Source: Phallusia mammillata (lineage: Eukaryota). Taken from it: 64,000 nucleotides of DNA. The notes below the pieces were generated by a model, which did no database searches, was not told the origin of the DNA, and was given only the letters and a program-made list of their open reading frames with translations. Both the position numbers and the translations under genes were made by a program. Position 1 is the stretch's first letter. Each line of letters opens with the position of its first letter. The DNA is taken from positions 21,700,001 to 21,764,000 of the forward strand of contig OZ281498.1 in assembly GCA_965637545.1 (NCBI GenBank), given 5' to 3'. Of the stretch, positions 12,101 through 44,100 are shown one piece after another.

Positions 12101-15100
12101 TATCAATGGCATGAAACCTGCGATTATTCAGGTTAGTAGTTGGACCGTTTTTCTCAAATAACTCAATAAACGGGCTTGATTTTGACCTAAAACCGAAAGT
12201 ACAAGTCCAAAACCGGCCCGAACCCGACTTTTTTTCAAAACTAATCCTGAAATATGCCTGTTGTTACAAATAACGCCGAGTGTAAAGTCATGTCCGAACT
12301 TGGTCTTATTCCGTTTCAAAAATCCAGCCCATTTTAACTCTGAACTGGAATACGCAGTTAACTGAAGCAAGAGAACCACCAACTCTGATATAGGCGACCT
12401 GTACAGGACGTCGAAACGTCGGTATAAAAATGCATTTGCCAGAAGAGCTCTATAAACTTGACATAACACCTGGCAACAATAGCTTATACACTAACCCTCT
12501 TTGTTTAGAAATATATCGAGGACCCACTTCTAATCGAAGGTTACAAGTTCGATCTCAGGATGTACGTTGTTGTTGCCCGCCTCAATCCAATAGAGATTTA
12601 CTTATGCAAGGTTCGTATAGAGTCAACACATACGTCTATAGTATATACAGTATAAAGATGGTACACAAAATTATTGCTCATAAACAGTTGCTTTAAATTA
12701 TTTCGCGCATGTTTCTATATGAGTGATCTTCAAATCGAGCCCTTACATGAGTCCGTGAACGGTTTTCGTGAGCCCAACACCATCTCACGACATTCACAAA
12801 ATATGTTTCCAACCCAAACTGTTTCATTACTTTTGTGAAGTCTGCGAATGGCCATGTGGAAGCAAAAACAAACCTATACATCCTTACATTAAGGACGGTC
12901 TTGCAAGATTGTGTACCGAAGAATACGAAATGCCGACATCGTCCAACATTCAGAAGACCTTCATGCACTTAACCAACTACAGCCTGAACAAGAACAGCGC
13001 CGGTTTTGTTTACACTAATGCTGAAGGCACTGGATCAAAACGCTCCTACCGCAGTGTTAAACAGGTTGAAAATGATACTATGTAAAACATAATTTCAGAT
13101 GTAGCAATGCGACCAGTTGTGCATTTTTGGTTTAATAATCACAAGGCTAAACAAGATTACACATACCTTAAATGACGAGATCTTATAGGAGTCGAATACG
13201 ATAAAATAGGTATCCGAATAAACGCATTAAAATATGGTGTGTTAACAAACAACAAGCCTAGTAGATATACTCAGTGGTGGGATTGAATTTTTTTGTCAGC
13301 CGGTTCTATCACAAAAGTCATATTTTTCAGCCGATTCTGTTACAAAAAGTCCATTGACAGTAACCAGTATATTGCTAACCGGTTCGCTGATCCCATAAAA
13401 TTTCGTGAGACAGTTATATAGAACCGGTGCGAACCGGCTGAATCCCACCACTGGATATACTGAACAAAACAAAAAGCACTTTATGTGTAGTGCTTCTCGG
13501 TATTTTATAAGTAAAGTTCGGTTCATCTCCAGTTGGATATTGTATCATTTTTCGGGTCTAATTCGTAACATTGTTTCGGTATAATGACGAACATGATATT
13601 TTTCGTCGTTTACACTTTTACTGAATTTACAACCTCAAGTTAAGGAATAAATTTATGTAAAATATTACTAAGCAGTATATTTTGTTAGTTGCTCAAAAAG
13701 AAAGGATACGACGTACATGAGATTGAGAGACAGATAAAAAACCTTGTTGTCAAGACAGTTCTCTCCATGCTTCCCGACATAACGATATGGGAACACGTGA
13801 CTAATAAGTCTAAACTTGTCAGGTATTATTTAACCTACTAACCAACTATATGTGTGTAACAATGCGTAATGAGAAAAATGACTTGGTTTATTCTTTTGAG
13901 TAGCGCAATTAAACACAAATTGAAAATTAAATTTGATTGTGTTTTTTTCAAACTCCGTTCAAGTTCGCGTTCTCACACAGGTCCTTTCAAATTCTCGGGT
14001 TTGATATCTTGCTCTCATCCGACATGCGAGCTCATCTTCTTGAGGTTAACTCGGCTCCGAGCATGGCCATTGATGCGGAACAGGAAAACGAAGAAGGAAT
14101 AATAGAGACTGTGACAAGTCACGTGGACGAACAGGTAGCTCTGATTGGTTAAGATCGGTGACACTTCGACCAATCGTTTAAGCTCGAGTCAAAACGATGA
14201 AAAAATCGTGCCCGTTTTAAATTACCAAAAACTTCTGGGCCAAGGGTCGCCAACCTTTACCACTCAAGGAGCCACTCGGGCCCTTTTTCATAAGTAAGTA
14301 AAACACAGAGAGCCACAAAGCCCTTTTGAATTAAAATGCCACTGCATGTAGCGTTTTTTTGCAATGTTGATTTTTTTCTTCGTTTAACACGCCACTATTT
14401 TGCCTATTTTGGACTTCACGTTTCATAGCATAGAAACGCGATTGTAGTGAACTACTAGAAGTAGTACGGGTCGTGCTTTTGCACTGTAATTTTCGTTTTC
14501 GGCTTTTGTGATCGGCATGGCATTCGCAATTGAATGTTGTAACCATTAAGTAATTACTAAAACTGTGCCGCATCCGAGGGATCCAAGGGCCGCGGGTTGG
14601 CTACCCCTGTTCTGGTGGAAGCACTGACTTCAACAATGGAATATTCGTAAAAATAAGCTTTTGTTTCGTAGATAAAAGTTCCTCTGCTTCGCGATTCGTT
14701 GCGTCTCGTTGCATACGGGGAGAGTGAAGTAAACATGGAAAAATCCTGTCTTGAGCGGGTGTATCCCCCAAAACGAGATAAGCAAGGAGTCGCAAAGACA
14801 AAAACAGAATCACCCAGAAAGGTCGAAAATCCTCCGGTAAAAGTCCACGAACGCAAGGAAACGATTAGGAAAGAAATTAGAGACTTAGAGGAACGGATCA
14901 AGGCTCAGATGAAAGTGGTGGAAAAATACAGGGTAAGGGCAAATTTAGATTGTAATTAATTGGTGGCAAATGTGCCCTGAATATCAAAATAATTTGCGAA
15001 ACATATGAAACAGGTTTCAAACGTGTTTTTGTCTTTACAGTTTTGTCTCATAACTTTATACTCATCGTTACACTTGTTCTAAAACATGACTATATAACAT

Positions 15101-18480: not shown

Positions 18481-20713
18481 ACAGTTTTAAACCGTCGGAA
18501 ATTTCCACATAAAAAAAACGGTGTTGGTTGTATATTTGAAGCGGCATTGCGAAATGAAAATGTCATGGTTCTGTTTCACTAAAAAAAAATAAAAGAAAAG
18601 AAACATGCAATATCGTAATTTCGCTCAAGGCGAGTCGGAATTAATTCCGGAGTTCTAGTAGCGAATGCCGGATTAATACTGTCCGCTCATCTGTCGCATA
18701 ATGATCTCTCGCAATCAAAGATTTAAGGGGGATAATAACTGCATAACGATGGTACGGCATATGGGTCAAGGACAATAGTCGTCGGTCTAGATCTCAATCT
18801 TAGTATTAGCGCTGCCTTGGTCGTGGGAAAAACTACAGTGACACTTCATGCTTTATATGCAAGATGTCGTGTTTTGTGCGAGCAATGAGAGAGATACAAA
18901 TTGATTTGGGTCATTACAAAACGGGTATTAGAGATGAGTAATAGAACTGGGATTAACTTATATAGCCATTGTGGCCATTTCTAGTGTACAATTAATCGCC
19001 TTGGGTGTTGTTTTGCAAGCATGGGTAAATCTCACATAGATTTCTCTTATTTTCAAAGACAGTAATCTTTTGTAGTAACGAAACACCAGTTTTGCATTCA
19101 CATCAAACTCGAAGCATAACCTTTGGCCATGTACTAAGTAATCGTCGTTTGGCAAGTTTTACTTAAACGGACCGAAATTTACTTCGAATTGTAAGTATTG
19201 CCAAAGAAACGGGGACACAGGCAAACAAATAACTTGAAAGAACCGGAAAGCACATCTATCATATCATAAAAAAACATTTTAAACCGCTTTATTTGCTTAA
19301 AATCGAAAACCTTTCTAAAAACGACAAAACGTTGCCTTGATAACAAAAATAAAATCAGTAGCACCTTAACAGAGCAATCAACGCAAAAAATCGATTTCCC
19401 AGTTGGTCGAGTGCGCAAGAGGGGTGTGGGGCGCCATCTAACGGGTTAATTAACTGCACGGGCAATCAACGAAGTCATTTGGGTTCAATTTCGATCGGTG
19501 ATTGGGAAGGGACCCGCTTTACTCCCTTAGGATATTTCGGTCTGGTGGACAATTGCGATCCATTTTTATATCAGTGATAAAGTATAAGATTCTCTGGAAA
19601 ACCCCTGAAAACCGTCGACCCGATAAAATTGTTATGATAACTTATGTGTCATTTCAAAGATAAACCAAATCTTAAAACCTAAAACTTACAACATAAAAAA
19701 ACCTCCAACATGAACTAAAGTATACGTTTCGTAACCACATAAGGTCAATTATTATGTCACGTATTTTGTTTAGCTGCCATGTGAACAGCATATGCATGAG
19801 CAACAGAAAAAACATTAGGAACAAAATCTTTTTACACATATGTTACAAGTTCTAAGGTAAAGGAAAGATTTTAAACAGAAAACAAATTTAGTAAGTAAAT
19901 TACTCATTTGCGTAAAAACTTTGTTTGAAAAGGTAGCAATGCTGTTACAATATGTTACAATAATGTTATAATTTGTGAAGTATCCATTTCAGGCATCTAC
20001 AATCATTTTTATGAGGGCACCAACCACTGCAGTTTTTAACCAAGTTTTGACATTTATCATCTCATAGGGTTAAACACAAACATAATTTTCAATGCACAAC
20101 GGCTAATGGGAAAGCATTGCCTCTGCATGGAATTAAGAGAAAACATATGTCGTATTGTGAGAGATTCATAACCGAATCGCCATATGATTTCCCCCGACCA
20201 ATGACCACTACCCAATGTTAATTACTCCATATGTCGGCTCGTAGCACAAGCACGTCGTTATATTGGGCTTGTATTGCACGGCAGATGCCCTTTATGCAAG
20301 GCACCAAGCACTGCACCATTGCTGTATTGGGCGGTTCTTTGATTGGAACATAAACGCGGCGTATTTACTTCGTGTAAACAAATGTTTTAAAAGTTTGTTA
20401 CATAATTTTATACCAATAAAACAAACGTGTCGTTAATATGTAGTTCAAAAAGAGTTCACATATTAAGCCATTGACCATTCTTCGAATATACAAACAAACA
20501 AATGATGCGTTTTGGGTCCAGTGTGATATTGAAATATCTTTGTTTGATTGCAAATTTTGTAATGATTGTCACATAAGTTCAGGAGGTGTTAAAATAAATG
20601 TGGTTTTAAAATTATTCTTAACAAGCAGTAATTCTTTTCTTATTATTGAAATCTCCTTTCAAGTAAAACGACCGCGACGATTCAGGGTCATTAAAATCAG
20701 ATGAAGAAAATTC

Positions 20714-20914
20714 AGTGTGAAAAACCACTAAATCTGTCGCTATGTTTTATTTGTTTTATCAAAACAAATGCATTTCGCTATAAAAAGCAACATCAGTGTC
20801 TAAAAACAAAATAAAAAGTGGGATAAGAGCAAATGCATTTGCTTTTATAGCGAAATGCATTTGTTTTGATAAAACAAATAAAACATAGCGACAGATTTAG
20901 TGGTTTTTCACACT
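20714..20914. repeat. Long near-perfect inverted repeat (foldback), ~76-bp arms
   Basis: 20714-20790 is the reverse complement of 20839-20914 with one indel; 48-bp spacer. Confidence 0.9.
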
Positions 20915-23900
20915 AAATTATTCTTAACAAGCAGGGCAGAAATCCATCGTGAAAAGCACATTTATGTGTAAACAAGAACTTAAAAATCTTTCCGCAACAA
21001 AACAAGCTCTAAAAGGCTGAGCCTAAAACGTTTTGTCACTTGCTTTTGGAAGTGAAGTGGAACAGAAGCATTATCTCTACAAAAATAATACCTTGAACTA
21101 GATTATCGTTGAGCTTGAAACTGAGACAAAAGATAAAACCGCTCTTGCGATGACCTACAAGTATTTTACCGTTAGTTGAGTCAAACAACAGCGCTGGCGG
21201 GCGGCAAGCACACTGCGCATGCGCAAGATGAATAATTCATGACTTTTCACTGCAGCAGGCTCCCGCAATGACAAGGCCTGTCGCTGCAAATGCTGAATAA
21301 AGTTGTATTCATTGGCCTGACTGACAAACCGCTGGTTGCTATAGAAAGTTGGTGCGTTTGAAACCCATATCCCGTGTGTTACGTCGCAAATTGTTCGTGG
21401 CTGATGACGCACACGTAATCGCTAATTACTGGGCTAATTGACGTAAAGCAATGGTGAAGGCGGGAGACTTGCTCAGAGGGCTTCAAGGTCATTGTTCAAT
21501 GTCAAACGTCACAACTGGGTCTGACGTCAAGCAATACCAAATAACTTTTCGTTTTCCTTGAGTAAAAATCGTTTTCGGTTTGTAATCACAAATTTGAACA
21601 CTAATAAAGACATTAAATCTGTCATCGCAATTTAAAATAGAATAGTAAACTTATTTGTTTTGTGTAATTATTCCATAAACACATTAATGCCTATTACTGC
21701 CTGCCATAAATACACATTACTGCGCATAGTAATATAACTCGAATATTCGAACGATTTTAATCAAATCTATTAACAAAGTTACACAACAAAACATCATGAA
21801 ATAATTTTGGTAGGGAAATAAGCAAAACTCGATATTTCACTCAAGACCAAATTATATAAATTTCGTGGCCATCTTTTCGGTTCTACGTCAAACACATTAG
21901 AATATAATATTCTTTAGAAAGAAACCTCAAAAGGGCGCGAATATGGTAATTGTTTTGGTGAAGTAAACATTTTTTACTTAAAACACAAGTTAATAATTCT
22001 TAAAAATTAAAAATTCATAAAATTTAGTGTGGCAAATTTCAGAAAGGTTTAAACTAATACAATGTTTGAATACACATAGATAAAAGACAGCATACTTTTC
22101 CCGCAAAATCAAAGCAACATATGGGCAGGTCGGCAATTAATTTCTTAGAAGTCAAACTCATTGGTACAACAAAGTAGTGAATATATGAGAATGTACGAAG
22201 CCGCAGCTGGTGACTTTGCCTTGTTCCACTGTGGCAACTGGCAAAAATATGAAAAATTCATGACTGGCTACTTGGAACCGGCGACTTTTGTGAGTCAGCT
22301 GTAAGGTGCAGTTATGTCGTCCATATGGACAACTGTAAAACTGGCAATGGGTTGTCTTTGTAGTTTACCACTTGCTACACCAAAATAAACCAAATTACTT
22401 TGGCATTGTAAATGTTTACACCTGTTCACCAATGATGGAATACCAACATCAACGTTTTCCAAATGTTTTGTTTCTCAACAAATGTTGCGTTTTGTGCAAA
22501 TGCAAATTGGTTATATTTAGACTTTCAAAACAGCCTTGACAGATAAACACAACGATATTTTGATGGGTACCTAAACTATTTTCAAATGTGGTAATCAACA
22601 TGCATATGTTCTAAAACCGAAATGACCAATATTAAACCTTGTCAAAAGTTTTGATGTTGGACAGATTTGAGTAATTAGCTAGCAAGAATTGTGGTTTTAA
22701 AAAAAAATTATTGACAATGTACAAACGTAATCCATACATATGTTTTATTGGCTGCTAGCAAACTCTGAAATGGACTCAAAATTGCTTGGGGAACGAACAA
22801 TCCCCCAACCAATCAGACGCCACCTTCGACCAAATGCCGGTGAAAGAAAATTTATTGACCCGTTGTTCTGCTTCGTACATCTGTTAAAGGTGCATTATAC
22901 AACACACTACCACCGTCTGTGAAGGATCTGATAATAGCAAGAAATCGCTAAATCTTCAAACTTGCTCTTGTAGATGCCAGGGCCCGCCATAATCAATTTG
23001 TAATAATACTTCGCAATCCAAAGTTTCAAATTTTAAATAAATCGTTTAGTATGGGTTGGGAGAAAAATCGGTTTTGCGTTCGTTGTGAAGAAATTAACGA
23101 GAAATATAATGGCAAAATAGTGACAAATGGAGCAACATGTTTTTTCTCAAACGCTGTGACCAATTTTCTTAAACGTGGCAATCATTCCTTTACGTCGCTG
23201 GATTATATATATATGTATTACACATTGGATTTTTAAAACGATTCAAGCATCGTGTCCATTCATGTAATAAACTTGTATTCAAATTTGAGAAACATTAAAA
23301 ATTTAACACTAGATCATGGAATGCCAAATTTTACCGAGTGTTCTGTTGAGAAATGTATGCTTGGCAATTCTGTGTAATATGTTTCCTATTCGGAAAGTAC
23401 ACAAACCAAAATTTCCGCTGTAACAACTCGCAAACACCTTGCGCAAAAACCAACAAAGCGCGCGTGCAGTTGGGCGTCAAAACAAACGAATTACCGTTGT
23501 CGTCTTTCGCTGTGAGTAACAAAAACAAGCAAACATTTGCCAACTGTCAAGCGCAGACAGATGTCACAACGAACAAATCCACGTGCTCACTGGCGATTAA
23601 CTGATTGCAAAACCAACACTTCCTTCCTATACCCCGCACCGGCAACGGTCAAAGCGAACAATACTCCTGCTGGCAGCTCGGACCTGATACACCCCTAATG
23701 CTTGATTAGCAGAAAATTACCTTATCACGACAGATTTACCTGTTTTAAATAGAGATTTCCTGTTGTAGCTTGTTTGTTTGTTGTTTTGTCGGAGAAATTA
23801 AAAGGAGTGACTGGCCTCGCAGTAGGAAATAAGTTTCAAATTTCAATACCTTGACATCAAATTGCGTGATTACGCCCTGCGATAAATTAATCGAGCAGGA

Positions 23901-25092: not shown

Positions 25093-25099
25093 TATAAAA
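25093..25099 (+). promoter_or_regulatory. TATA box of the miR-124 host transcript
   Basis: CTATAAAA ~30-35 nt upstream of Inr-like CCATCGCAGTT, followed by an exon ending in AAG|GTAAGC. Confidence 0.65.
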
Positions 25100-26940
25100 C
25101 GGCAGCGGTCCATTGACTAACCATCGCAGTTTGCAATCAGCACTCAAACAAGCAACATCCACGGGAGCAAGATTTAAACAGCAAAGGTTTTGTGGCGAGG
25201 CGCGTTTTCAACGCTGAAAAATGAAAGATGGAAGAGATAAAGTGGATGTCTTCAACGGGAAGTGCAAACCTAAGGTAAGCTTCTGCAAGTGTTTATACGC
25301 ACTAATTAGCGCAACCTGAAGTATAACTTCCTAAAAATGATCTCTTATATAAAGAATTTCGCAATGTGCGATAACCTCTCAAGACCTTTCGCATTTAGTT
25401 ACCGTGAGCACCGTGCACTCTAATATAATAAATTTTACGAGAAACTTAACAGAATATTCGTATTAACCAACGGTCTAACGTGGTTTTACATAAGATGACT
25501 TATAGCATCGGGCAAAACAGGTGGCGCGCCGCTGGTGGGGTAACAGCCGAAAGACGCACGATTTTGGGTCGATATTGCGAAGTGAGCGGCACATTCCGAA
25601 AAGTGCGACGTTGCATAATTGATAAGCAAGCCTAAATGTCACTTGCCAAAGAAGGAAACGGGAGTTCCTTCCCAACCAGCCGACGCTCACGTACAAACTG
25701 TCGGCTGTGGCCGCCCGTTGCCACCAGCAACCGATGAATAATTGATTTAAATGCTCTGACGTCACCATAGAGCCTTGCAACGGCTTCACTAAATCATTAG
25801 AGTCGCCTGAGCCGTTTTTCAAAAGTCAAACTTCGAGCCGCTTCTATAAAAAGACGTTTTAAAAGGAAAGGGGTCGTTGAAAGCTTTCTTGGATAGGCGC
25901 TTTTAAATCTTGGTGCTAGTGGTGGTCAAGAAAGGTCGCCTTTCGAAATCGGAAAATGCCATCCGAAACTTTAATTAATTAAAATAGAAAAATGTGTTTA
26001 CAGCACAAGCCAATTTAAAACGCCTAAGCGACATAGAATTATCAGATTATTTATCGTTATCTTTCTTTCGACAGATGGCAAACTGTAGATCAAGCCGATG
26101 ACATAAGATGGAAAGCTGCGAACAAACGGTAAGTTTAGATTTTTTGCAACAGTTCTAGCACGCCCAAATTTAACTGCCAAGGACATTTGTACTAAATCAA
26201 TAAGCGCAAATGCAAAGGACATGTGCTTATGGTCTGGCAGGTGAAAACGGCAGTTTCAGCACCAGGCTGCTTGCACTAATTGGGTACAGGGACAGCTGCT
26301 TTACGCTTAAAAATACCAGTCGTACCCGTTCGCCCACATAGAGAAACATGTGTATGTAAGCAAAAAATCGATACTTGCACATTGTGTAGTTCACAATTGT
26401 ATTTTAAACCAATACCCTGGCACATGTTTAATTCTAAACGATTTGAACTTGAAGCGGTGGTAATAATAAGCGCAGCTGATTTTAATCAAAAATTAGATCA
26501 TTGGTCCGTAAAAGTAAATTTTAAAATAAGGCCAAAGCCATTTAGTTTCTATTTTCGCACCATAAACAGAAATCACAAGAAACCAATTAGCCCAGAATTA
26601 AGTTCCTCGTAGGATACGAGGCTCTAATAAGACGCTGTAATCTTTGCTGGTATACTGTACTCTCTCACAGCATCCAACGAACGATTTCATTGTTTTAAGA
26701 CGCGTGACCATTGTCCGCGTATTCTATAGTTTGGCCGCAAGCAGGACGTCTCTACAATTCGCTGCGTGATAAGTTTATTGTCTTTAAAGCCCGCAATTAC
26801 AGAACATGGCGAAAAGCAAAAGAAAAAAGTTGCCCCGATCGGTATAAATCACGCCTCCTAGCAAATAAAATCATTCCAATCATTGGAGTTGATCTAATCA
26901 GCAAGAATACTGGCAAAATGATTGGTTGTTGCTAATGGCA

Positions 26941-27013
26941 TGTTCCGTGCGTATTTAGTGTGTGATCCTTACTGTTTTATACAATAAGGCACGCGGTGAA
27001 TGCCTGCGGAACA
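26941..27013 (+). ncRNA. mir-124: pre-miR-124 copy 1 (mature 26985-27006, UAAGGCACGCGGUGAAUGCCUG)
   Basis: Exact 20-nt miR-124 core on the 3' arm; flanks TGTTCCG / CGGAACA close the hairpin. Confidence 0.95.
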
Positions 27014-27119
27014 CTGCTACGTACATCACCAACCAAGCAATGGATGTAGTAGATGAATTTGAGGCAGTTAAGCCCAATTATAGTGGAAACAGGGCCAGGC
27101 TTGACTGCAAAAAACGGCA

Positions 27120-27189
27120 TGTTTTGCTCGCGTTTGCTGTGCATCTTACTGCGTTTGCACTAAGGCACGTGGTGAATGCCTGCGAAACA
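27120..27189 (+). ncRNA. mir-124: pre-miR-124 copy 2 (mature 27161-27182, C10U variant UAAGGCACGUGGUGAAUGCCUG)
   Basis: 19/20 match to the miR-124 core with intact seed; TGTTTTGC / GCGAAACA close the hairpin. Confidence 0.9.
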
Positions 27190-27294
27190 CTGCCACTTAC
27201 AACACTAACCAAGCACTGGTTGTAGTCGTAGATGAATTTAGGGCCTTTTAGCCCAACTCTATAGGAGCAACAGAGTTGACTGCAAAAAACGACA

Positions 27295-27364
27295 TGCTTT
27301 GCTCGCGTTTGCTGTGGATCTTACTGCTCTTGCATTAAGGCACGCGGTGAATGCCAATAAAGTA
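27295..27364 (+). ncRNA. mir-124: pre-miR-124 copy 3 (mature 27336-27357, canonical UAAGGCACGCGGUGAAUGCCAA)
   Basis: Exact canonical miR-124-3p; 5' arm CGCGTTTGCTGTGGATCTTA resembles miR-124-5p; TGCTTT / AAAGTA close the hairpin. Confidence 0.95.
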
Positions 27365-28331
27365 CTGTCATAATCTTCATGTGAGAAATATAGATTCAGT
27401 TTGGAGTCTATAAAGCTGACACAGCCAATTTGTACCCTATAGGCTAGAATACATTTGGCCGTATTATTGAAAATAAGCTTTTAAAAAACCATACAAAACC
27501 AGGAACACACATTTTCCTGTAGATGTATTTTTCCACACAAAAAAACTTGGTCTTGCTTACCTTTCAAATGAATAATCCTGATTAGCTGGTTAAAATTGTG
27601 TTTCTTTTTTTCAGGTTTGAGACCCGTTGAAGTAAGTTCCAGCCTACCTCGAACGGCTCACAGAGCACCGTTCTTCGTTTCCTGCAAGTTCCAGCCTTTA
27701 GCAATCCAGCTTTAAGGCAACTGCACAACTCAACAACAACTTACAGAACCCAGCGTTGACCCAACAATCAATTTGTAGTCAGCATTGTGCGTTTGACAAT
27801 CACTCAGTTTAGACTTTTTTCCTAAACAATTCTGCGTTTATTCGTAAACAATACCTGGTTAAAAGTTAAGACCGGACATTTTGTTTGATAGCATGCCCAT
27901 AAACTAGTTTAAGAATACTGTTTTAAAACCACTTTTCTTCATGTAATGTATCATATTGCTTTCTCCCTTGAGTTCCAACAAACAAAGGTTAACTTTGGTT
28001 TTGTAAATTCTTGATGTATTATAATTATGAGTGTTGTCTAAGTGAGAACTAATATTTCTGCCACCAACTTCTTCAACTAGCTATCATGTCTGTTCATGAG
28101 TTCCATTCCGCTCCGTTTGGGAGCTCACCTTTGTATATGGCACGTGACTTTAGTCTACAAGCAGCCGTGCTCGCGTTTGCTGGTACACTCACTGTGAATC
28201 TGTGCTTTGCAAACTAAATATTGCAAAAAAACTACATTTTGATCTTAAATTTTCTGCCGTTTTGAGATTAAATTTATGTTTAGATTTGTACAAAGTTAGA
28301 AAACCTTTCTTTTGTGTGCTTCACTGTGAAA

Positions 28332-28440
28332 TGTAAATACTTTACCTTCTTGGATCAGTGCAATACTATCTGTACATACATACTGTATATACTTTTATAT
28401 CAACCTTGTACATATACTTTTGCGTGGAACTATGTAAATA
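28332..28440 (+). promoter_or_regulatory. Cluster of five Pumilio response elements (UGUAHAUA)
   Basis: TGTAAATA 28332, TGTACATA 28371, TGTATATA 28384, TGTACATA 28407, TGTAAATA 28433. Confidence 0.6.
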
Positions 28441-29281
28441 AACTAACCATAATAAAAGGATAGTGCTTCTATATTGGAGACCGCTTGTCGTTTGGAGAAC
28501 TTGGGCAGTCAACTAGTCATAAATTATGCAGAAGTAATGAATCACTGAAATGGATGTGGTTACATGCGGTATAAGAGTAAAACAATTAATTGCGTGAGTC
28601 AGGTCATAAAGATCAACTGTAAATGCGTAGAAAAAAGGTTTTGAAAATAGATAACATGGTAAATAATTATTTTCTTTTTAATCGAATACCGAACCCAAAT
28701 CTTTGAAATAAAAGCTTGCAACAAAAACGGTTTGATTTTTCCATAAAATTATTTTTTTTGTTCACTTTAACGTAACATTAAGAAGAAAAAGATCAATAAT
28801 TTTACGGTTCATAAAATAGCAAGCGGTTGTCCTACAATCTGTGCTTTACTGGTTTTCTGGCATTTTTGACGACTTGTTTTAAGTTCCCATCATATAGTAC
28901 AAAAAAACACGTTCTAAATTTAAACAAAAGAAAACGAACAAGCGGTACAAACCTAATTTGAAAATACCACAAACATAACCCGTGTTTTGAATTATGCAAA
29001 ACTTATTCGTGTAAAATGGCAGTGACAGCTGTTTAGCACTCTGAGAATTGTTTCTCATATAGGCAACTTAATATTGGTTCAAACACTTACACAAAAATTT
29101 ACACATAAAACAATATTATGTAACTTAGTTGAAACCTTTTTCATGTACAGAACGATTTTCTCCTGTTTGTAATACCATAAAAATTCCACTTACTAACGGT
29201 GCCTACGTTAAAGGTTGAGCAAACACGCCCAGTACTTTACATTAAACACAACACCACCAGCCAATCATGTCAGCTTCTCAT

Positions 29282-38193: not shown

Positions 38194-41100
38194 ATGTCTG
38201 CGGAAGACGATGTTCCAAGACTGGAACTCCTGTCAACCATTGGATTCAATGGGTTGGTCAATGGCGGTCTCATTATTCACCCAGACAAGTAAGAAACTCA
38301 ACCTAAGCATTTAACACACGTTTTTTTTTTGAAAAATCAGGTCAATCTAATAGTTAAGATAAACGTAAGCTTAACTGGCATTAGCCCTGAAGCCTTAATG
38401 CAGGCCTATCATTTTAAAATCATAGAAGACAGGACGATTGAAGGTTGTTATACCAAATCCGCCGGTTACTAAGCATTCCCAAATTGCAAATTCGCTATGA
38501 GGCAAACCTAAATAGATATATGTATATTTCCAAACAAAAAATACAGTTTAGGAACAATAACACTTCTTAACAACAAGTGGTTGATATCTTGTACTTCTTA
38601 AGTTACTAAGTCTGTGCGGTAAACCTTGGGTGACTTATGTTTTTTTAAACCTGTTTTAAGAGAACATATGGTCTATCCACTGGGCAACACTGTGATCGTG
38701 CGCAACCTGAATACAAACAAGCAAGATTTTCTAACTGGTCACACCAACACAGTGTCATGCCTGGTTGTATCCAAGAGCGGAAAATATATTGCATCTGGAC
38801 AGGTTTGTACTGGCAATTTTTAAATACAAAAACCATTTGTTGTAATAACAATTTTAAGGTAAAAATGTGTAACATTTGTGGTAAGTCTGTCCCAAGGTTG
38901 TCTGCCTCTTTTCATTGTTTTGTACAGATAGGTTGATTTTAGTTTCAAATTGGCCCATCAGTTTTTTCTTAGTAGGAGTAAGGATGATCAAAGTTTGTGG
39001 TGATAAAAATACAAACAACCAAAATAATTTATACCCAAAACCAGGAAATTGCAGTTATGACTCTACTAAACTCCATTTTTATATATTTTTGATCACATAA
39101 TCATTTTATACTGCAACCCTAAGGTTAGGATTCAGTTGTATTGTTGAAGTTCAGTTGTATTTTTAAGGTATCAACACACACCACTATAATTTCTACTTTA
39201 TATGCATATACAGGTCACACATATGGGATTCAAGGCAGCCATTATGGTGTGGGATTATGAGAAGCGATGTCTAAAATACCAATTGATACTTCATAAAGTG
39301 AAAGTTGAAGCTCTTGCTTTCTCTCCCAATGAATTGTATTTGGTTTCCCTTGGTGGACAAGATGACAATTCAGTGGTTGTTTGGAATCTGCAAACAGCAG
39401 AAGCAGTAAGCCTTTTATTGCATTTATTTCAAGTTACAAAATCTGTTGCTCAAGTTGTAATTTGTCTTACCACACATTTCACACATCATTACCACACAAA
39501 GATGATTCCTTGTTAAATCGTCCAAACTTTTCATGAGAATAATCTAGTGCATCTAGAACAGAGCTCTTCAACTGGGGATCGCGGAACCCTAGGGTTCCGT
39601 ACAACCCTTTCAGGGGTTCCATGAACTTTAAGGGTTGCACGGGGATTCGCAGCGGTTTGTTGTAGCACTTCAAACAAGAATGATTTATAATATATCATTG
39701 TTTGAAACATTAAGACTTGCCTGTACCATCTAGTTAAGTTCTGTTAGACCATTGATCAATTGTGACGTAATAAATACAACCTTGTTACACTCGCTAAATT
39801 GCGAGATAAATGTAGAAACGACCGATCCAAATAACATGGCAATGCGTTTTAGTGAACCGTTTAATTGAAGTCAACCTTTGTGAGTGCTTTGGATGTGCCA
39901 AGTAAAAACGCATATTTTTCCTTTGATGTAGCCTACTTGTATTACATTCATTAAAATTATTTTATGGAGGTTCTGCAAAGTTTGACAAAATATCTTAAGG
40001 GTTCCGTGCCACTGAAAAGGTTGAAGAGCACTGATCTAGAATATACAGGATCACTTGGTGCACTTTAAAATCGATTGGTACACCTTTATGTCCTTGGTTC
40101 GTCTTTTTCCACTTGGTGCACCTTCATATGGCTTGGTTAACCTTGTTCAAACAGTGCCATAGTAACATGCAACAGTGACATAGTAACATGTAATATTAAG
40201 GGGCACCCAAAGTATTAATATTAAGGGCAGTGATCCTGCATGTGACAAATCACCTGACAAATCAAAATGTTTTTCAACTAACAATAGGCGACAGTTTTGG
40301 ATTGTGCAAATGGCCACAGTTTTGGATTGTACAAATCATTTTGCAGTTAATTGGATTAAGTTGAACTGTTAGCATTAACCTTGGGCAATAATGGCACCAA
40401 ATATCATATATCAGTAGAGAAAGACATATAAACCTTATCATACCTTCATAAACACCAATAACCAACTTGAAAAGTAGCTTGACATATTGCAGAAACTGAT
40501 AGGGTTAAATCTCCATTTTCTGTTAAAGTTGTTTGTTCCACAGCTGCTGTTATTATCAGTACAAAATAACACCATGATTGTAAATAATCCATATGTTCAA
40601 AAAATTTGTACTTTCTTTACCAGGTTTGTGGATCACCAGCTGCTGTGCAATCTGCTGGTACAACATTTACTGTTAAATATGCAAGCAACAGTGATGATTT
40701 GTTTGTGACTGCTGGGGATGGCACCCTTCGTGTGTGGGAGCTCGATCTGCCCAATCGCAAAATCAGGCCACAGGAATGCAACTTGGGGCAGTTAAAAAGA
40801 ATTGTCAAATGTGTTGAGGTAAGATAAACAGCTAGTTTTCACAAGTAGTAATTCTGAAACCAAAATGATAGTGATTAGCAGGATATGCTTTAAAAACGAG
40901 TTGGTATTTTTTACTGCATAGACTTTTGTTCAAAGACAAAATGTAAGGTGCTTAAAGAAAAATGCAGTAATTGATACAGTTTAATACAGTTTTTTTTTTA
41001 AATACAGTTTTACAGTAATGATATTTTAGTATATACTGTAAATTGACCTGAAAGTATTTCATTGTGGAAAAGCTTCGTAAAACACTTTCCAAAATCAAAA

Positions 41101-44100
41101 CAACAGTGTTTGGCAGGGTGCATGAATTCCTTTGGGGTAAAAAAAACTGTTTTGAAATTTTCCCACAGTTGTTTTTCTTGTCAAAAGGTCGATGAAAATG
41201 ACGAATACTTTTACTGTGGAACAACAAGTGGTGACATCCTCAAAATTAACATGAAAACCAAGTTTGTGGCCAACCATGGACCAGCGAAAGGGAAATTCAG
41301 CCAAGGAATTGCAGACATCAAAGTAGGCTATGCTTCCAAGAGTAGAAATTAATAATTGAAATTGTGCAACATAATTAACTAAAACACACAACATTATGAA
41401 TGACTATTCAAGACATGCAGTGGTGGGATTCAGCCAGTTCGCACAGGTTCTATAGAACCGTCTCACGAAATTTTATGTTAGCATTACTAGTTACTGTCAA
41501 TGGGCTTTTTGTAACAGAACCGGCCGAAAAATATGACTTTTTTGATAGAACAGCCTGACAAAAAATTTGAAGCTCACTACTGAATACATGTATATATATT
41601 TATGCTGTAATGCAAAGTAATTTTGTGTTTGTTGCAACAAACTAAGTGACCAAAAAATAAGTTATCGCTGCCAGGCATAATGTATAAACCAGTGGTTCTC
41701 AAAACTTGTTTAAAATCGTTCTTCATAGGCGACAAACCACAATGCATTGTGACATTTAAACCCACTGTGATGCAACAGAGGTAAATTTTCAGTGGCAAAC
41801 ACATCACAATGTAGTGGCTCTTTATTATTGAGTTCCGATGTCGCAGCCCAGTCAAAGGGATTGAAATTTTGGTCCTGGACCAAACGTGGTTGGTATATTC
41901 TGCACCTTGTTTGGGTTGCTTGTTAATAAAAAAAGAACAAAAAATACCAAAACCTTCAAAGGGGTCTGCGATTAGCTTGACAGTACCAAAAGGGGTCCGC
42001 AAAGTCAAAAAGGTTGAGAACCACTGGTATAAACGAATGCTACTCTCCAGCAGCTTTATCATAAATACTAGATGTCCTATACAAGACACCTTCAAGAGGA
42101 TAATGCCATATCATAAAAGACAAGTTAACCAAAGTAATGCATAAAAATGGTGTAAAGTTTGTTTTTGCTTGAAATTTTTTTGTGTTTTATAGATCTTGAA
42201 GAATGGCAACTTGCTAATTGGAGCAGGGGATGGAACAATTGCTCTGGTGAATGGGAGGAGTGATAAATACTGTGTAATAAAGCAGGGTGATTGTAAATTG
42301 AAAGGTGCAGTTTCATCTATTGCACTTCGTGGCCAGGGACACCAATTCTTTGTGGGCACCAACAAGTCACAGATATACAGGTAAGCCTAAACAACTTTAA
42401 ATATCCCAAGTTTATATATCGAGATAAATGTGCGTAATATAGTAAAATGAGTAAAATGATTTGCATACTGTTTATCTTTTTCCAACATTAGTTGTTGCTG
42501 CCTGATTCTAATCCATTTTTACGACAATTTGCTTTATATTATCTGAAAAACAAAAACGATAAAGTTCTGAAATTTTGACAGTAAAGTTAGAATATCACAC
42601 CATCAGTTTGCACCTGTTTACTCCTGTACTTTAGCATACTGTTTTTATGAAATCTAATACAGTAAACCTTGGTTAAACTGGACCCATTTGGACCAACAAA
42701 TTTGTCCAGACCAGGCAAAGATCCATATTAACCGATGCCAATTAGTTCTTACCACATTACAAATCATTTGTACCTGAAGTTTTGTCTGAATTAGGTAAAT
42801 CCAGATTAACCGCATGCAACTGTTAAATTTCTTAAGCTACATTTTTTATTATGTCTTTTACACTGGTCCATTTGAGATAATAAAGTCATGACTTTTTTAT
42901 AACTCTAGCATTTTAATTCACAAATATATAGGCTACCTGGATTTTCTTTTCACAGATTCAACCTTACTGACTTTAAAGAGGATCTCGTTATGTCTGCCCA
43001 TTACCAACCAGTGCTTGACGTTGCATTTCCACTTTGTACATCTGATTTGGTGGCAACCTGCTCAGGTGATGATATCAGAGTTTGGCACACTTGCACTTCT
43101 CGGGAACTGCTAAGGATCTCTGTGCCCAACATGATATGCCATGCTATCGAGTTTATGCCGGTAAGTAAAAAAAAATACAATTTGTGTAGGTACAATGCCT
43201 TAGATAAGTGTTTTTTAAACCCCATAGACTAAATAAGTCTGCTATTTGCTTTGATAAGTCAGCAACAGTTTACTGAAATACAAATACTAATTTTTGGTAT
43301 CACCTTTATCTAAACGCTAAAAAAGCCTAGTTAACGCCAACACATGAACTGATTTGGCTCTGAAATGTACAATTTCTCTGTAGATTGACCACCTTCAACT
43401 GTATTTAAGACATGTTGATTGCTAAATGCACATGAAATGAGCATAAAATCCTAGGACAAAACGAAAAACGCAACTTGCAACTTGATGACCATAAACAGAA
43501 ACACAAACCAGCCCTATAAAAAAACCCGCCATATTTTAAGTTTCTACACACTTTAACGTACCACTTGCAGGACGGTCATTCCCTGATCTCAGCGTGGAAT
43601 GATGGAAAAATCCGCGTGTTTCTTCCGGAAAGCGGAAAGGTGTGGTACGTGATTAACAACGCTCATAACTCTGGTGTAACGGCCGTTGCCGCAACTTCGG
43701 ACAGCAAAAGGATTATTTCTGGCGGTGGTGAAGGCCAGGTGGGTATAACCTTGTATGCATGAAAATTTTTGTATAACATTTCAAGCTTATTGGTTTGTTA
43801 ATATCAGAAAAGTTATGCGTTTTATCCTATACCCGTTGTATAATTTGGACACAAAATGGCCTCCATAAGGCTCAATGGATTGGACAACTTGTGTTTCATT
43901 TAAAGCTTGGTGCGTATATACCTGTGTCTACTGTCTACTGCGCCAAATGACTCTTTCGTTGTACTAAATCAGGCCGGTCTCCCAAGCATTTCAATGTGGC
44001 AAGAGATAAGCGTGAGAAATACAAAAGCAACATAAGAAACGTCCAGCACCGGTGGGATTCGTACCCAGTGGTGAGCCCCCTCTAGTTTAAATAACAAGCA

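Follow-up and report, generated by a model that had tools for sequence, protein, structure and literature searches.

A hybrid middle hairpin in a three-copy miR-124 array of Phallusia mammillata

The miR-124 array and its predicted host gene

The window (the whole 64-kb stretch of DNA analysed here) contains three mature miR-124 sequences on its forward strand, read directly from the sequence and referred to below as copies 1, 2, and 3 in the order in which they lie (Table 1). A pattern search with mature position 10 left free located three miR-124 loci in the entire 240-Mb genome (312 contigs), all belonging to this array. The 8-nucleotide pattern count of three within the window is reached by 39 of 100 shuffled sequences, and is no evidence when taken alone. 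All three hairpins match the Rfam mir-124 covariance model (RF00239) over its full length, with the seed and the 3p placement of the mature strand kept. Copy 3 scores 50.6 bits, above the gathering score of 49; copy 1 (43.5 bits, E = 1.1e-07) and copy 2 (38.4 bits, E = 3.2e-06, the lowest of the three) lie below it, and copy 2 departs further from the family in having U at mature position 10.

The predicted folds of copy 1 (−40.8 kcal/mol, z −5.93), copy 2 (−37.3 kcal/mol, z −4.66), and copy 3 (z −5.33) are each matched in stability by none of 200 shuffled sequences. The 3p mature of copy 2 retains an intact miR-124 seed (positions 2–8) and is identical to copies 1 and 3 in 19 of 20 nucleotides. 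Its predicted geometry would fit Microprocessor, with a stem that starts 13 nt ahead of the predicted 5p start and a CNNC at +18. The CNNC at this position is common to all three copies, while a basal UG is present in copy 1 and absent from copies 2 and 3; we take both to be miRNA-processing motifs.

Table 1. Features of the miR-124 locus, in window coordinates
Feature	Position	Strand	Basis or detail
Predicted Pans-like host start, short ORF	25093..25274	+	Sequence only; TATA-like motif 25093, exon 1 end 25274
Predicted host exon 2, 54 nt	26075..26128	+	Splice motifs
Predicted intron 2, holding all three hairpins	26129..27614	+	Splice motifs
miR-124 copy 1 hairpin, upstream paralogue type	26936..27019	+	Predicted 5p start 26950, mature from 26985
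Repeat unit A (176 bp), from mature 1 through the spacer to the 5' half of copy 2	26985..27160	+	Pairwise alignment with unit B
miR-124 copy 2, chimeric hairpin	27116..27194	+	Predicted 5p start 27129, mature from 27161
Four basal-stem sites against the chimera pattern	27117, 27122, 27185, 27194	+	Each gives a better pair
G-to-C change in copy 2 5p arm	27142	+	Copy 3 and the two printed Ciona hairpins (PMC2884542) have G
Junction interval	27158..27180	+	Flanked by 27157, the last site of copy-3 type, and 27181, the first of copy-1 type
Repeat unit B (175 bp), from mature 2 through the spacer to the 5' half of copy 3	27161..27335	+	Sequence and alignment
C10U in copy 2 mature	27170	+	Sequence; contigs of 4/4 runs
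miR-124 copy 3 hairpin, downstream paralogue type	27291..27369	+	Predicted 5p start 27304, mature from 27336
Predicted host exon 3	27615..28456	+	Sequence motifs; AATAAA at 28437, 28451
Fragment resembling the 5p arms of copies 2 and 3, with no adjacent mature	28168..28194	+	In predicted last host exon

The array would occupy the second intron of a short-ORF gene. The predicted ORF encodes 26 amino acids from an ATG at 25221, other short ORFs being possible between 25093 and 28456 on the same strand. In Ciona robusta, two tandem miR-124 copies are placed in intron 2 of Pans (10.1101/2023.12.20.572557; PMC4377283), and the Ci-Pans ORF is given as 22 amino acids (10.1101/2023.12.20.572557). The layout at the present locus predicts the same arrangement, with the hairpins in the host's intron 2.

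The fragment at 28168 has a 15-nt core that occurs three times in the genome, in copy 2, in copy 3, and in the fragment itself; its local alignment score is 32, and none of 64 background tiles scores above 28. As a candidate fourth hairpin it was rejected (z −0.70, 50 of 200 shuffled sequences folding equally well, no Rfam match). It could be a relic of further copying, or else a site that is complementary to the 3' half of miR-124 but has no seed.

Copy 2 is a hybrid of its neighbours

The middle copy had been described in an earlier note on this DNA as resembling copy 3 in its 5' flank and 5p arm, and copy 1 in its 3' flank. Pairwise alignment bears out both resemblances. Over the 45 nt upstream of its mature sequence, copy 2 agrees with copy 3 in 39 of 45 columns and with copy 1 in 29 of 48, and over the 109 nt downstream it agrees with copy 1 in 87 of 115 columns and with copy 3 in 57 of 117. 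A three-way alignment provides 104 informative columns. The best break leaves 44 of them on its left, 34 resembling copy 3, and 60 on its right, 45 resembling copy 1. The alignment thus shows a switch in similarity within copy 2 and not a uniform likeness to either neighbour, and the switch score was reached in none of 2000 permutations; the outer columns of this test include non-homologous flank, which contributes noise only.

The surrounding DNA is a tandem repeat with a period of 176/175 bp (units A and B), identical in 147 of 181 aligned columns. The ends of the repeat fall exactly at the mature sequences, and the two spacers are homologous over their full length, with a JC divergence of 0.174. 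Copies 1 and 3 today have an exact common stretch of 20 nt at the mature sequence. These observations confirm copy 2 as a real hybrid of the neighbouring miR-124 copies.

A false tandem join of two haplotypes of a two-copy locus, with T at 27170 as an error, would predict the same chimeric pattern, and the array was therefore examined in contigs from 4 of the 24 sequencing runs listed (four samples, three studies). Two of these runs (X1 and X3) are possibly the source of the present assembly, a point on the side of such an artefact; X2 and X4 come from other studies. All four cover the array in one contig each, with T at 27170, no indels, no joints, and flat depth, although contigs drop rare variants, so that a rare C allele at 27170 or a copy-number variant could go unseen. 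The U proposed earlier for this position thus stands, no other letter being found in the contigs of any of the four runs. Neither mark of a false tandem duplication, absence from independent data or a difference between units at the allelic level, was found: the two units disagree in about 19% of aligned columns, against 0–3 sites per kb between the runs and the window, and the longest exact match from unit to unit is 19 nt, shorter than the 31-nt word from which the contigs were built. An assembly artefact can be given almost no credence; since the contigs of all four runs hold three copies and T at 27170, the array is not an assembly error. Runs that differ at 0–3 sites per kb, set against a spacer divergence of 0.174, place the duplication far earlier than present variation, and the three-copy array and U10 are likely fixed in the species. 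Single-base differences among the samples are seen at 26800, 27021, and 27670; position 27021, at which X2 and X4 differ from the window, lies in the spacer of unit A.

Related loci allow the parental copies to be recognized. The two Ciona hairpins, mir-124-1 and mir-124-2, lie 140 bp apart (PMC2884542; supplement rows of PMC5399378) and, as printed, have an identical loop and an identical 3p arm between different flanks (PMC2884542). Compared by eye with these printed sequences, the upstream hairpin (mir-124-1) resembles copy 1 in its 5' basal part, 5p start, and predicted 5p seed, and the downstream hairpin (mir-124-2) resembles copy 3 in its 5p start and the pattern of its 3' flank. Both species thus have tandem hairpins of two paralogue types in the second intron (predicted here) of a short-ORF host. 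However, the Ciona cluster has two copies at 140 bp with identical C10 matures and loops, whereas the present array has three at 175–176 bp, the middle one chimeric and carrying U10. Halocynthia roretzi likewise has three copies, of which two form a tandem pair with a spacing of about 207 bp (PMC5399378); in contrast to the present array, the third is distant, on the opposite strand at about 8 kb, every one of the printed matures has C10, and no chimera is reported in the parts of that paper covered (PMC5399378).

In addition, two metagenome loci (L018 and L106) have 5p arms identical to that of copy 1 at 25 of 27 positions. At L018 (640–740) a single miR-124 hairpin with a copy-1-type 5p arm is seen within ±700 bp, and L106 is similar; L018 and the window (at about 26768) also share a 9-nt motif about 180–215 bp upstream. 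The L018 hairpin is likely a tunicate orthologue; compared as a candidate single-copy deletion hybrid, it has a 3' flank that agrees with copy 1 at 5 of 17 positions and with copy 3 at 6 of 17. Since Ciona and Halocynthia both have tandem pairs, and the flanks of the Ciona pair resemble copies 1 and 3, we infer an ancestor with two tandem copies, in which case copies 1 and 3 would be the old pair and copy 2 the newcomer. The identical loops and 3p arms of the two Ciona hairpins further suggest that exchange (gene conversion) between tandem miR-124 copies recurs in this group.

Mature products and two derived changes in copy 2

The array was proposed in the earlier note to encode three distinct mature sequences with different 5p arms. 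This holds at a length of 22 nt. Copies 1 and 3 are identical over their first 20 nt, however, and would yield the same RNA at 20 nt; copies 2 and 3 also have a common predicted 5p (star) seed. In Ciona, miR-124 reads are dominated by the 20-nt form (44289.5 of 49717, against 282 for the 22-nt form, library effects being possible; PMC2884542, PMC5399378), and star reads number 1480.5 and 1751 against about 49700 mature reads, or about 3% (PMC2884542). If this dominant length applies here, the array would produce two mature RNAs and not three, since copies 1 and 3 are identical at 20 nt.

Position 10 is normally C, as had been stated. At least 119 metagenome matches were obtained with this position left free, of which, among the matches listed, 115 have C, two T, and two A; they represent 97 distinct contexts, many from related hosts. 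Among the matches listed, 107 form a hairpin by the fold criterion, all of them with C at position 10, while four non-C and seven C matches lack the hairpin fold and one is too short. As C is present in every hairpin-forming metagenome match listed, U10 is rare and derived, on the evidence of these sequences.

Another derived change, which the earlier note had passed over, lies in the 5p arm of copy 2 at 27142 and acts with C10U on the predicted fold; the note had also missed the pairing-improving basal changes considered below. Introduced singly, neither the 27142 nor the 27170 change moves the predicted fold. Together they are predicted to shift the register of the upper stem, at a joint cost of 4.8 kcal/mol and with the duplex ends unchanged. 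The shifted register, to which the prediction gives a probability of 0.96 at 37 °C and of 0.66 at 18 °C, would have mature positions 5–8 fully paired and positions 9–10 bulged. The simpler view of U10 as a plain G–U wobble was revised; such a pair is legal in the canonical register, yet the shifted register, in which the base is unpaired, is the one predicted. According to a review of human and fly data, Argonaute loading is helped by central mismatches and unwinding by mismatches in the seed (PMC3395129). Because the place of a mismatch affects these steps (PMC3395129), the predicted shifted duplex could either raise or lower the output of copy 2.

It is very improbable that copy 2 has acquired targets of its own through U10 and its hybrid arms. 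In favour of such a function, U10 is present in all runs examined and the hairpin has been kept; however, the seed is unchanged, and position 10 lies outside both the seed and the supplementary region at positions 13–16. On a fully matched C10 target, the U10 substitution changes the calculated duplex energy merely from −39.7 to −37.8 kcal/mol. The diversity of central and 3' pairing proposed earlier for the three matures is overstated: when 38 seed targets of miR-124 were assayed with sensors in Ciona, only pairing at position 9 correlated with repression (PMC4377283). Star sites gave no significant repression in the same assay, and repression was dose-dependent (PMC4377283). The main effect of copy 2 is thus likely one of dosage, with more miR-124 being made, and the one changed base is predicted to alter the fold of copy 2 more than its targets.

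Probable origin and upkeep of the hybrid hairpin

The reading favoured here, with a probability of about 75%, is that copy 2 was born as a hybrid by a 175-bp duplication mediated by the homology of the shared mature sequence, and that it likely still yields miR-124 with the normal seed. Mature 1 would have mispaired with mature 3 during recombination or replication, and exchange or re-copying would then have duplicated the 175 bp between them, leaving a hybrid flanked by two intact parents. Selection may later have kept the lower stem paired, while the upper stem loosened somewhat. The same neural host intron would then supply seed-identical miR-124 from a third copy, perhaps with a different loading efficiency and with largely the same targets. 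Copy 2 has the form of a gain product, being a hybrid with its junction inside the shared homology and accompanied by duplicated intervening DNA. No reciprocal single-copy deletion product was found in the contigs of the four runs, which show no joints here but drop rare forms.

Hybrid genes formed by unequal recombination of tandem paralogues are well known from the Lepore and anti-Lepore globins and the hybrid opsins. As in the Lepore and opsin cases, copy 2 is a gain product in which a hybrid middle gene and a duplicated spacer lie between intact parents. It differs from the globin and opsin hybrids in its unit of 175 bp, in a homology of about 20 nt, and in being an RNA hairpin; because both halves of such a hairpin must pair, the junction creates mismatches in copy 2. 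Ordinary homologous recombination needs tens to hundreds of base pairs, and microhomology-mediated tandem duplication is also a known process. The homology at the junction is 20 nt exact today and may have been longer at the time, as the loop and arm are common to the printed Ciona pair. The route could have been unequal crossover, sister exchange, or template slippage or switching, and, as the homology is only 20 nt and every route leaves the same junction, the enzymatic route is not separable. The earlier proposal of an unequal crossover within the shared mature sequence of a two-copy ancestor therefore stands as to the chimera, the junction in or just before the mature, and, as far as the available Ciona data go, the two-copy ancestor; a strict crossover is not separable from slippage.

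A longer history, in which duplication of the whole pair was followed by partial deletion, or gene conversion patched three older copies, would agree with the conversion suggested by the identical loops and 3p arms of the printed Ciona hairpins, and the extra 5p-arm fragment at 28168 points to additional copying here. In copy 2, four basal sites that bear the base of the "other" parent could be read in the same way, but they are accounted for by pairing. More steps would be needed, moreover, and the full-length homology of the spacers and the exact coincidence of the repeat ends with the matures argue against such a history, which is considered very unlikely. A separate alternative accepts the same origin and regards copy 2 as a redundant duplicate in early decay, giving little or no mature RNA, with C10U a sign of lost constraint. 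U10 at a site with C in 107 of 107 hairpin-forming matches among the matches listed, the two derived and destabilizing upper-stem changes, and the lowest Rfam score of the three copies all fit this account, as does a substitution density in the hairpin (10 differences from an in-silico hybrid in 84 sites) that is not far below that of the spacer (14 in 90), a point against strong upkeep.

Several features of the stem nevertheless make such decay rather unlikely. The in-silico hybrid, assembled from the present 5' half of copy 3 and 3' half of copy 1, folds at −30.9 kcal/mol, compared with −37.3 kcal/mol for copy 2. The nine non-mature differences from it gain 9.4 kcal/mol, a gain equalled by 20 of 5000 random sets under a null that assumes every difference to have arisen in copy 2, and every basal change improves pairing. 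Judged by eye from the printed flanks of the Ciona hairpins, the changes at 27122 and 27194 seem to have arisen in copy 2, while the base at 27117 could be the ancestral one and 27185 can be read either way. A comparison independent of the direction of change finds every one of the 32 canonical pairs of copy 2 legal, as opposed to 30 of 32 in the unrepaired hybrid, whereas three to four pairs would be broken if neutral change ran at the spacer rate (P 0.012–0.030; 0.002–0.089 over the other rates tried). The seed and the CNNC are intact, and the gap columns comprise no indels in the hairpin against 11 in the spacer. The favoured reading, of a hybrid whose lower stem has been kept paired, agrees with these results. 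A bolder extension, put forward only tentatively and judged unlikely, is that arms are shuffled between tandem miRNA paralogues with the ultraconserved mature sequence serving as an anchor for recombination, that convergent, compensatory changes repaired the lower stem of the hybrid, and that 27142 and C10U together re-register the upper stem, so that the output of this fixed copy would be tuned through duplex geometry and not through targets.

Tandem gain of miRNA copies is in itself ordinary. In the main texts of open papers, no three-copy tandem ascidian miR-124 cluster was found, the U10 miR-124 sequence gave only papers unrelated by title (supplements, miRBase, or MirGeneDB may list it), and a narrow search returned no report of a chimeric miRNA arising by unequal crossing or conversion; the available parts of PMC8704543, PMC2775919, and PMC5831862 contain nothing on chimeras or position 10. 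The combination of hybrid origin, stem upkeep, and a tagged mature therefore appears to be new, as a real though modest variant. In ascidians, neural fate is shaped by miR-124, which ranks with the most conserved microRNAs of animals. Established knowledge of its action is unchanged by this locus, which offers a compact and readable case of a new miRNA copy born as a paralogue hybrid with its stem kept paired afterwards. As U10 tags reads to one copy, the output of the hybrid hairpin is directly measurable.

Elsewhere in the window, five of eight ORFs scanned against Pfam gave no match, and neighbouring exons at 12759–13082 and 39190–43229 (both on the forward strand) matched the tubulin-tyrosine ligase (PF03133) and WD40 propeller families. 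A 77-bp inverted repeat (20709–20785 and 20843–20919), with arms 99% complementary and 57 bp apart, looks like a small non-autonomous DNA transposon.
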